A stretch of 16,873 bases of DNA from Candidatus Eiseniibacteriota bacterium (GTDB lineage Bacteria > Joyebacterota > Joyebacteria > Joyebacterales > Joyebacteraceae): NCBI GenBank assembly GCA_043819135.1, contig JBDRFG010000161.1, positions 1 through 16,873 on the forward strand, in the 5' to 3' direction. Each line of letters opens with the position of its first letter. The first letter of the stretch is position 1. The notes below the pieces were generated by a model. That model saw nothing but the letters and a program-made list of their open reading frames with translations, did not search any database and was not told the DNA's origin. Positions 4,553-6,655 of the stretch are shown here, piece after piece. The translations under genes were made by a program, and so were the position numbers.

Positions 4553-4636
4553 GCGCGGCGCACCCTGCCCTCCGCCGCGAGTTCGGCGCGCCGGCGCCGC
4601 ATGCCTGAGCGCCGGGGGGCAGGGTCTGCGCCACGC
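4553..4636. repeat. Structured palindromic element, copy 1 (3' of purA)
   Basis: Core 4562-4625 ACCCTGCCCTCCG...CGGGGGGCAGGGT plus outer stem GCGCGGCGC/GCGCCACGC; arms homologous to the copy at 6527-6655. Confidence 0.85.
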
Positions 4637-4646
4637 TCGGGAAGTG

Positions 4647-5933
4647 CTACAGCAGCCGCTCGAACTCGACGATGGCGTCGGAGGCGGCGCCGACGGACGC
4701 GACCGCGATGCGCGCCCCGGAGAGCTCCTCGATCCGCCTGAGGTAGGCCAGCGCCTTCTCGGGCAGCTCGGCGCTGCTCCTGGCGATGCTGGTGTCGGCT
4801 TCCCAGCCCGGGAGTTCTTCGTAGACGGGCTGGACCCGACGCAGCGCGTCGACATCGCGCGGGAACGTGTCGACGTTCGCGTCGTCCAGCGTGTACCCGA
4901 CGCACACGGGGATCCGCGGGAACGTGTCGAGCACGTCGAGCTTGGTGATGATGAGCCGTTCGATCCCTGAGAGTGCAAGAGCGTAGCGAAGCGCCACGAT
5001 GTCCAGCCACCCGCAGCGGCGGGGACGCCCCGTGGTGGCGCCGAACTCGGCGCCGCGTTCGCAGATGAGCGCCGCGGGTCCGCCCTCAGCCTCCGTGGGG
5101 AACGGCCCGGCTCCGACGCGCGTCGCGTAGGCCTTCGCCACACCGACGACCTCCCCTATCCAGGTCGGCGGCACTCCGGTCCCGGGAGCGACACCGGCCG
5201 CCGTCGTGTTGGACGACGTAACGAACGGATACGTGCCGAACCCGATGTCCAGGAGCGCGCCCTGCGCGCCCTCGAAGAGGACGTTGTCGCCCGACGCGAT
5301 GGCGGACCGGATCAGCCCGGGTGTGTCCGACAGGTAGGGCACGAGGGCCTTCGCGGCGGCCCACATCTGCTCCCTGATCTCGTCGAGGCTCACCGGCTCG
5401 GCGCCGTAGAGCTTGGTCAGTATGGTGTTCTTGCGCAGGACGATCGTGGACAGCTTCTCCTCGAAGCGGTCGAACGACGCGAGGTCCCCGCACGTCAGAC
5501 CCTCTCTCGCGTAGCGGTCCGAGTACGCCGGCCCGATGCCTCTGTGGGTCGTGCCTATCGCGTCCCCGCCGCGCGACCGCTCCTCCGCTGCCTCGACGGC
5601 CTTGTGATACGGCATCACCAGGTGAGCGCCGACGTCGATCAGCAGGTTGTCGCCGACCTCGATGCCGTTCGCGCGGACGTACTCGATCTCCTCGACCAGA
5701 GCCAGCGGGTCAATTACGACCCCCGGGCCGATGATGCACTTGACGTTGGGGACGGAGATACCCGACGGCAGCAGGTGGAAGACGACCTTCTTCCCTGCGA
5801 CGTTGACGGTGTGTCCCGCGTTGGCGCCTCCCTGGAAGCGTACGACCATGTTGGCGCGGGACGCGTAGAAGTTGGTGATCTTCCCCTTCCCCTCATCGCC
5901 CCACTGGGTTCCGACTATGACCAGAGCGCTCAT
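4647..5933 (-). CDS. purA: Adenylosuccinate synthetase
   Basis: [51 protein letters not shown]; 428 aa; ATGA overlap with purE. Confidence 0.98.
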
Positions 5934-6490
5934 TGCTTACCTTCCGGCGTCAGTTCTCCGATTGCCTCGGCGGCGCTCTGAAGCTCGGACGTGAGCTTGC
6001 GGTCCTTCTCTTCGACCGAGCGCTCGAGCTCTTCCTTGAATGCCACCAGTCTCTTCCTGAGTGTCTCGTCGTTCAGCGCCAGGATCTGGGTCGCCAGGAT
6101 GGCCGCGTTCTTGGCGCCGTGCTTCCCGATGGCCATGGTCGCGACGGGGATGCCCGAGGGCATCTGGACTATCGAATAGAGCGCGTCGGTTCCGCGCATT
6201 GCGCCGCCCTCCATGGGCACGCCTATGACGGGGAGCGATGTGACCGACGCTATCGCGCCCGCCAGGTGCGCCGCCAGCCCGGCCCCGATGATGAAGACCT
6301 GTATCCCCTCCCCCTCCAGTTCCGCAGCAAGCAAGGTGGTCTTCTTCGGCGACCGGTGCGCCGACGTGATGCGTGACACGTACGGCACGCCCAGTTCGTC
6401 GAGCATCTTGCCCGTCTCCTGCATGGTCGGCAGGTCCGAGTCGCTTCCCATCAGGATGGCCACGAGCGGTCTTCTGTCGTTGCTCTTCAT
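5930..6490 (-). CDS. purE: N5-CAIR mutase (class I PurE)
   Basis: [38 protein letters not shown]. Start placed at ATG 6490 (GAGGG upstream), 186 aa, rather than 6655. Confidence 0.96.
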
Positions 6491-6526
6491 AAGGTTTTTC
6501 CCTCGCTTCGAGTACGAGTGCGGAGG

Positions 6527-6655
6527 GCGGCGTGCCCTGACACCCGCCGCGAGTTGGACGCGAAGCGTCGACTGTCTGGGCGCGGCCCCGATGGCCCGAT
6601 CGCCCTCTGCTCCGCGCCGTGTGTCTGAGCGCCGGGGGTCAGGGCCCGTCGCCAC
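6527..6655. repeat. Structured palindromic element, copy 2 (between purH and purE)
   Basis: Core 6534-6645 GCCCTGACACCCG...CGGGGGTCAGGGC, with the same internal motifs as copy 1 and 48 extra nt at the tip. Confidence 0.85.

Follow-up and report, generated by a model that had tools for sequence, protein, structure and literature searches.

A dispersed hairpin repeat with a fixed internal loop in a purine gene cluster of Candidatus Eiseniibacteriota resembles REP and RPE palindromes

Two long hairpins built around one invariant internal motif lie after purH and purA in a 16,873-nucleotide stretch of DNA from Candidatus Eiseniibacteriota (contig JBDRFG010000161.1 of GCA_043819135.1, positions 1 to 16,873 of the forward strand; this whole stretch is called the window here). 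Several described kinds of hairpin element invite comparison. The attC sites of integrons are strand-specific single-stranded DNA (ssDNA) hairpins of low sequence conservation that follow stop codons. The element of the window is likewise a hairpin, probably of ssDNA, placed after stops with little conserved sequence, but its conservation is central rather than basal, it forms no cassette arrays and its neighbours are core genes.

The GTAG class of repetitive extragenic palindromic (REP) sequences, with the bacterial interspersed mosaic elements (BIMEs) and REPINs, is mobilised by the REP-associated tyrosine transposase RAYT (TnpA-REP). In the accounts given by PMC3733652 and PMC6006769 these repeats are multi-copy and patchy across taxa, lie just past stops between co-directional or convergent genes with occasional intragenic copies, and show G-T pairs in their stems, dimers and mosaics; all of this is shared by the element described here. 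However, inspection of its flanks revealed no GTAG or GTGG tetranucleotide at the hairpin foot, no Y1 transposase gene was found in the window's family or flanked by the motif (see below), and what it conserves is an internal loop set midway along a 20-30-bp stem whose sequence is free, whereas REP stems measure 5-13 bp (Table 1 of PMC3733652). The CGTC REPs, as PMC3733652 presents them, are also palindromic, extend over several phyla and apparently lack a dedicated transposase, their spread without RAYT being treated there as an open question; they differ in their terminal CGTC tag, absent here, and in an 8-9-bp stem, where our element has longer arms.

The Rickettsia palindromic elements (RPE), in the descriptions of PMC10969869 and PMC3184786, are hairpins of ~100 nt that sit in frame in unrelated housekeeping genes, as some copies of the present element do. 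RPE are described as conserved 105-150-bp units of one genus. By comparison with these descriptions, our element differs in its arms, which change between copies and are in part a mirror of the target, and in having only intergenic copies in most carriers. The likeness to MITEs (miniature transposable elements with inverted repeats) and to the terminal inverted repeats of TIRYT genes (as described in PMC3733652) lies in a ~450-bp composite of an Omnitrophota metagenome-assembled genome (MAG; G062) that the hairpin caps at both ends, but in single units the ends are the least conserved part and the centre is fixed, no motif stands at IS110 or Y1 ends, and the Y1 genes of carrier genomes have their own, unrelated terminal hairpins. 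With the GNA mini-hairpin signals (phage G4 origin, ssiA, N4 promoter) treated in PMC13037366 the element shares C(GNA)G triloop caps, but it is chromosomal, multi-copy and orientation-free, with 0 copies in the viral contigs of IMG/VR and 0 copies of the window's form in the plasmids of PLSDB; phages yielded two weak records (E 0.07). The element works like REPs and RPEs, yet it differs from those described: it has neither a GTAG nor a CGTC tag, no RAYT, and conservation at the centre.

We propose, with a probability of roughly 0.6, that it is a REP/RPE-like dispersed ssDNA hairpin repeat, spread in trans by a putative enzyme, and that template switching gives rise to its flips and its covariation. 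A REP-like or ssDNA hairpin was one of two candidates in an earlier note made from the window's sequence alone, and it is the one upheld by what follows.

Copies were sought with BLAST, patterns, a covariance model (R1, built from six copies) and later a profile. The genome that holds the window (G000, the window being its contig C161; 2.69 Mb, 174 contigs, 92% complete) has nine copies, seven of them away from purine genes; the seven copies besides those of the window are on other contigs, which disposes of the simple local duplication considered in the earlier note. The complemented genome, used as control, gave a best match of E 0.37; the reversed genome was unsuitable, since the reversed element resembles itself. 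Among relatives a strict pattern matched only in G000 and G002 (2/61 genomes), and otherwise at one GTDB locus and at two metagenome loci, hence the covariance model was needed for the family. R1 matches occur in 27 of the 31 genomes of the window's family, at 1-13 copies each and 6-13 in each of the seven genomes of the genus; four genomes have none and many others one or two. These counts are floors, as 150 of ~900-4,300 candidates per genome were scored. Perfect generic hairpins reach at most 25 bits with R1, and seven family matches below 30 bits were left out of the G-T and stop-distance counts. The 122 listed family rows, minus three opposite-strand duplicates, gave 119 copies for examination.

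According to a codon-score gene caller, 118 of these 119 copies lie outside genes. Between co-directional genes 44 are sense and 38 antisense, 14 lie between convergent and four between divergent genes, and 18 lack a neighbour; the 77 co-directional copies counted have a median distance of 27 nt from the upstream stop codon. Their neighbours (89 proteins) are unrelated and include a GTPase, NAD synthetase, endonuclease III, RecO, RtcB, RuvB and hydrogenase maturation proteins, so the element lacks the restriction to nucleotide-synthesis genes that would have spoken for a regulon. At 10 of the 12 orthologous sites with at least three copies the core occurs in both orientations, for instance six antisense and one sense between purH and purE, and three of each between a GTPase gene and that of a pyridoxal-phosphate (PLP) enzyme. 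The purH-purE spacer is occupied in 7/28 family loci (6/6 in the genus, and G023), the other loci having short spacers without the element, and after purA the element is present in G000, G001 and G004 and missing in G005, G006 and G007. Core variants are specific to the genome rather than to the site and recur at different sites; half-elements often occur in duplicate, and some copies are nested or duplicated in part. Unrelated neighbours, patchiness, flips and variants together imply that copies are gained, lost, replaced and inverted. Many copies stand at contig ends (G001:C42, C257, C204 and C148; G004:C184; G003:C26; others); this is consistent with assemblies breaking at the hairpins, so that copy numbers in MAGs are probably underestimated.

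The genes of the window form a minus-strand pyr/gua/pur cluster, and the strand on which the earlier note drew the hairpins is antisense to the mRNA. The two copies and the adjacent genes are as follows.
4551..4638, plus strand: copy A, the entire long hairpin, lying between the purA stop and the folE2 upstream region (from the fold; covariance-model match at 4560-4627)
4577..4583, plus strand: copy A, 5' half of the invariant internal motif, GCGAGTT
4584..4599, plus strand: copy A, apical stem-loop, with the loop GCCG at 4590-4593
4602..4610, plus strand: copy A, 3' half of the invariant internal motif, TGCCTGAGC (family consensus TGTYTGAGC)
6526..6653, plus strand: copy B, the entire long hairpin in the purH-purE spacer (an inverted repeat that folds)
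6526-6550 and 6629-6653, plus strand: copy B, outer arms
6548..6585, plus strand: copy B, left half of the motif, the mini-hairpin GCGAAGC (6560-6566) and, directly after this tip, a proximal right half that is truncated
6586..6613, plus strand: copy B, 28-nt linker separating its two right halves
6614..6645, plus strand: copy B, distal right half, complete (motif at 6622-6630)
6506..6515, plus strand: copy B, outermost left arm, predicted from the fold to pair with 6666-6675, the last purH codons
3666..4436, minus strand: folE2, GTP cyclohydrolase (PF02649), context
4647..5933, minus strand: purA, adenylosuccinate synthetase (PF00709), context
5930..6490, minus strand: purE, AIR carboxylase (PF00731), context
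6663..8231, minus strand: purH, AICARFT/IMPCHase (PF01808, PF02142), context

Copy A scores 73.5 bits with the covariance model (4560-4627), and its RNA fold of -69.3 kcal/mol (z -3.8) is matched in stability by 0/200 shuffles, the other strand reaching z -4.1. The fold of copy B is moderately beyond chance (z -2.3, 4/200 shuffles; other strand z -1.8). The earlier note had placed one core at 4562-4625, 21 nt from the purA TAG stop, and the other at 6534-6645, 17 nt from that of purH, which is exact, and its arm identities of 23/29 and 27/32 were reproduced. Two of the three paired double changes that it reported, A-T/G-C and CCCTGC-GCAGGG/CCCTGA-TCAGGG, are present; in the third, the GAC/GTC pair exists, but it uses the proximal right half of copy B (6565-6569) and not the distal one (6614-6645), on which the 27/32 identity rests. 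Copy B is in fact a composite of two variants: the core variant at 6548..6585 is that of G000:C11:48088 and G002:C298, while its distal right half is the variant carried at the same site by the congeners G001, G005 and G006. Between 4400 and 4700, around copy A, there are 0 terminator-like sites (a stem followed by a U-tract), and the view of a selected fold with a fixed internal loop, rather than a plain terminator, stands.

The invariant part of the element is an internal loop, GCGAGTT opposite TGTYTGAGC, in which a short stem is combined with tandem G-A pairs and an asymmetric loop. The motif encloses an apical stem of 4-8 bp and is itself enclosed by arms of 20-30 bp that are free in sequence (median 27.5 pairs in the family and 23 elsewhere); such arms flank 168/173 copies found by pattern and 9/300 random positions. 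With 113 distinct sequences fitted to the model, 94% of the aligned cells are paired and two-sided changes occur at 22/24 pairs. These values far exceed those of shuffled and slid controls and bear out the covariation foreseen for a larger alignment; the alignment leans toward the model and includes a few opposite-strand duplicates among its rows. The loops are C(GNA)G triloops in 56/88 cases in the family and GNRA tetraloops in 3/88, and the G of the loop is followed by A, C, T or G depending on the copy. According to the account in PMC13037366, only GNA loops give a very stable DNA mini-hairpin, the RNA counterpart melting much lower. G-T outnumbers A-C on the motif strand, by 48:29 in antisense copies (p 0.04) and by 52:40 in sense copies (p 0.25; Fisher p 0.53), counts in which copies found by the covariance model are biased to G-U on the modelled strand and kin are not independent. 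The ratio is 210:85 in copies found without stem scoring. When each arm cluster is counted as a single copy (106 clusters, 224 copies) it is about 108:54, with 48 clusters favouring G-T and 22 A-C. The GNA loops, the G-T bias of the motif strand and the free orientation relative to mRNA point to a fold of one DNA strand. A K-turn or box C/D reading was rejected on inspection, no 3-nt bulge standing beside the tandem G-A pairs.

An element acting at the RNA level, either an orientation-tolerant hairpin that stabilises or processes mRNA 3' ends or a small RNA of the motif strand spread by reverse transcription, would account for the short distance to the upstream stop, for the antisense position of 19/21 copies in genome G098 relative to the nearest stop and for the strong covariation, and tandem G-A pairs are also an RNA motif. 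We nevertheless regard it as unlikely, as antisense copies, too, carry the G-T bias on the motif strand, GNA triloops outnumber GNRA tetraloops, and copies are found in frame within genes. Rfam has no match to the element, whether in the window, in 16 loci from other phyla (where one microRNA model reached 31 bits against a threshold of 90) or in another 20 loci, in agreement with the earlier note, which saw no match to known riboswitch consensuses. Neither copy was covered in one metatranscriptome (share 0.08, contigs only, unstranded).

Outside the family a relaxed pattern matched at least 119 GTDB loci. Among the 80 matches listed are Coriobacteriia, Omnitrophota, Planctomycetota, Francisellaceae (Gammaproteobacteria), Bdellovibrionales and Bacillota; long arms flank 74/83 matches among those listed, and several copies there sit within the tip of an older one. 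One 34-nt core is identical to the letter in Coriobacteriia, Omnitrophota, Planctomycetota, Francisellaceae and Bdellovibrionales, while the arms follow the composition of the host. At least three copies of the window's form occur in 5/370 other bacteria (control maximum 2), and five other carriers hold 18, 67, 15, 5 and 10 copies per genome, with 0 in controls. A circularly permuted form, in which TGTYTGAGC comes first and the loop is on the opposite side, reaches at least three copies in 12/370 bacteria, none of which is among the 5/370 with the window's form, and in 0/31 genomes of the window's family; it tips longer imperfect hairpins. Cultured carriers, judged by record titles, are Ellagibacter isourolithinifaciens, Gordonibacter and Olsenella, and a few copies elsewhere are also near pur genes.

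Some of these genomes merit separate description. In Fusobacterium (L539, L538, L557) the permuted motif tips an intergenic hairpin repeat of 160 nt, which occupies at least 40 places in NZ_CP084075.1, a 2.1-Mb record filed as a plasmid yet chromosome-sized. The Omnitrophota MAG G062 has 67 motif copies, and its non-coding composite repeat (L279-L284, L287) combines long imperfect terminal inverted repeats with internal hairpin modules. The element stands between argG and argH in both Eggerthellaceae and a Planctomycetales MAG (L207, L156, L203, L227, L179), a recurrence that reflects either site preference or chance. ColE1 contains a 12-nt piece of the permuted motif (L559:1332-1343) between the origin region and rop, which may be its primosome assembly signal.

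In-frame insertion was not seen in the window's family (1/119 copies inside a called gene), although the arms reach a called gene in 24/104 copies, such as copy B at the end of purH. In G065, an uncultured Francisellaceae MAG, nine of ten copies are in frame within long open reading frames (ORFs; L292, L299-L304, L194), the hosts being presumably lipB, ubiG, carA, nuoM, uvrA, rnpA and aceF. Five of these genes were compared with 4-5 homologues each, from five relatives at 46-84% identity, and carry 23, 25, 19, 27-28 and 30-31 additional residues, the hairpins spanning 98-111 nt. The outer end of one arm coincides with codons that the homologues conserve: in lipB A-D-P against G-D-P, in carA G-V-I-x-P, in ubiG F and P-E, and in uvrA E-L-T against D-L-T or D-L-I. 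The outer part of the other arm hence mirrors 9-30 nt of target DNA, and fold-back synthesis, at insertion or later, may lie behind this mirroring.

We suggest the following course of events. The motif strand would fold when single-stranded, with its tandem G-A pairs, asymmetric loop and GNA mini-hairpin cap, and a protein would recognise this hairpin by its shape. Acting in trans, that is, with no neighbouring Y1 transposase, the protein would copy the unit to new positions closely behind stop codons or, if the host gene tolerates it, into codon loops. Fold-back synthesis (template switching), at the time of insertion or afterwards, may mirror target DNA over 9-30 nt in the outer arm, and template switching would keep the arms matched, flip the core and duplicate half-elements. 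Arm-on-arm repair together with copy replacement would largely explain the 'compensatory changes', in place of selection for a regulatory RNA, and any effect on the pur mRNA, such as 3' stabilisation or pausing, would be a side effect.

Several observations weigh against this proposal. No Y1 transposase (PF01797) was found in the 31 family genomes, incomplete as MAGs are, so that of the dispersed copies plus RAYT expected for a REP-like repeat only the dispersal was seen. Y1_Tnp is present in three of five and in two of five other carriers, and all six genes are flanked by unrelated hairpins, none by the motif. No shared nuclease or recombinase emerged from 4,380 clustered ORFs at 341 loci, a comparison made without searches for GIY-YIG, DUF559, IS91, reverse transcriptase or integron integrase; clusters resting on loci L236-L274, whose taxon labels were wrong, were left out, as were the orientation counts of one ORF caller that often picked wrong-strand frames. 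Target mirroring comes from five genes of one genome, with homologues no closer than 46-84%, and in G098, where a burst of 22 near-identical copies is seen, 21/22 examined have the same arms, that is, the arms can travel with the core as well. Copy A lacks the family-typical GNA triloop. Occupation of some sites across genera fits a retained host function equally, and part of the flips could be assembly errors in MAGs. As to strand, which in IS200/IS605-type ssDNA elements is tied to the replication fork, the antisense bias of G098 makes replication and transcription inseparable there; in G000 four copies are lagging, three leading and two on an ambiguous contig; and replichore polarity was not seen in G373 or in Fusobacterium (W01), the latter judged from the interleaved strand pattern only, dnaA not having been found. 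Same-contig pairs in the family are on the same strand in five cases and on opposite strands in eight. Replichore polarity as a general rule was therefore rejected; the pattern would suit an insertion that is polar at first and is then randomised through flips.

Other searches near the copies were also negative. In three sets of neighbouring ORFs (89, 123 and 58) scanned with Pfam, no nuclease or recombinase recurred. IS110 was rejected as mobiliser: it is present in 13/31 genomes, is absent from G004, G005, G007 and G013 despite their 9-12 copies, and has the element at its ends in 0/12 IS110 loci. The Y1 genes at L275, L276, L278, L495 and L496 have their own terminal hairpins or inverted repeats (TIRYT-like), and at L275 two Y1-like ORFs face each other inside one repeat pair.

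A chromosomal ssDNA signal kept by the host and maintained by selection, such as a primosome-assembly-like, SSB-resistant (single-stranded DNA-binding protein) or topoisomerase/recombinase site, would agree with the occupation of the same spacers across genera and with G098, in which the copies of one contig are all on one strand, the C-rich one in 8/8 contigs examined. The ColE1 piece described above would also suit it. Mini-hairpins at phage and plasmid priming sites bind SSB poorly, as reported in the account of PMC13037366. Such a signal is improbable, however, considering how few of the 370 other bacteria have three or more copies of either form, the four family genomes without a match and the many with one or two, the lack of replichore polarity in G000, G373 and Fusobacterium, and insertion into coding loops.

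Spread without any enzyme, through slippage, template switching and gene conversion between hairpins, with the core persisting as an unusually stable DNA fold, would be in line with the failure to find a cognate gene and with the many partial half-element duplications. The identical 34-nt core in five groups and the burst in G098 argue against it, and template switching should erase an internal loop rather than keep one; we give this explanation little credence. Finally, a cis-regulatory RNA of purine operons (a riboswitch or protein-binding leader), the other candidate of the earlier note, to which the two copies in one pur operon and the few near pur genes elsewhere might point, is ruled out by the family distribution, with most G000 copies off purine genes among unrelated neighbours, the orientation flipping even between purH and purE, 21/28 orthologous spacers lacking the element, and no Rfam match.

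Upstream of folE2 (4492-4545, minus strand) a GCAA...CTT motif precedes a promoter-like pair, TTGACG at 4521-4516 and, after 18 nt, TACGCT at 4497-4492. The arrangement is conserved across the family, in some genomes as a hairpin with TGACAAG/CTTGACA arms; in the window the pair scores below the threshold of the promoter scanner. This suggests that folE2 has its own, possibly regulated promoter, which would place copy A at the 3' end of the operon. Elsewhere in the window, two tandem 41-nt copies, 73% alike, lie at 847-928 between a histone-deacetylase-family gene and a TPR gene, and the IMPDH gene (13365-14525) encodes the short form of 386 aa that lacks CBS; in G362 (locus L555) a close relative of this gene adjoins a permuted-form hairpin.

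The motif was not found described in Rfam or in the searchable full-text literature, that is, text apart from figures and most subscription papers. Motif strings are absent from the searched supplement files of PMC8040213 (files other than 7 and 8) and from four text supplements of PMC3733652 (figures apart). An earlier description may exist, above all of the Fusobacterium repeat or in RNA-motif supplements.

A wider and more doubtful reading, which we put forward only tentatively, would join both permuted forms into a previously undescribed cross-phylum superfamily of mobile ssDNA hairpins defined by structure, moved in trans by an enzyme that is neither RAYT nor of an insertion sequence, perhaps a replication or repair protein of the host acting at the fork, with the stem built through fold-back synthesis from an inverted copy of the target. 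If this were true, a 35-nt element would have a novel route by which to move and to add peptides to proteins. G065 is an RPE-like case in Gammaproteobacteria. For RNA discovery the family is a caution, as strong covariation around an invariant internal loop, seen in the spacer of an operon, can have its source in a DNA repeat. It offers a short invariant bait, one internal loop found across phyla in two permutations, and its cultured carriers, together with in-frame insertions that record integration, make the spread of palindromes without RAYT directly testable.

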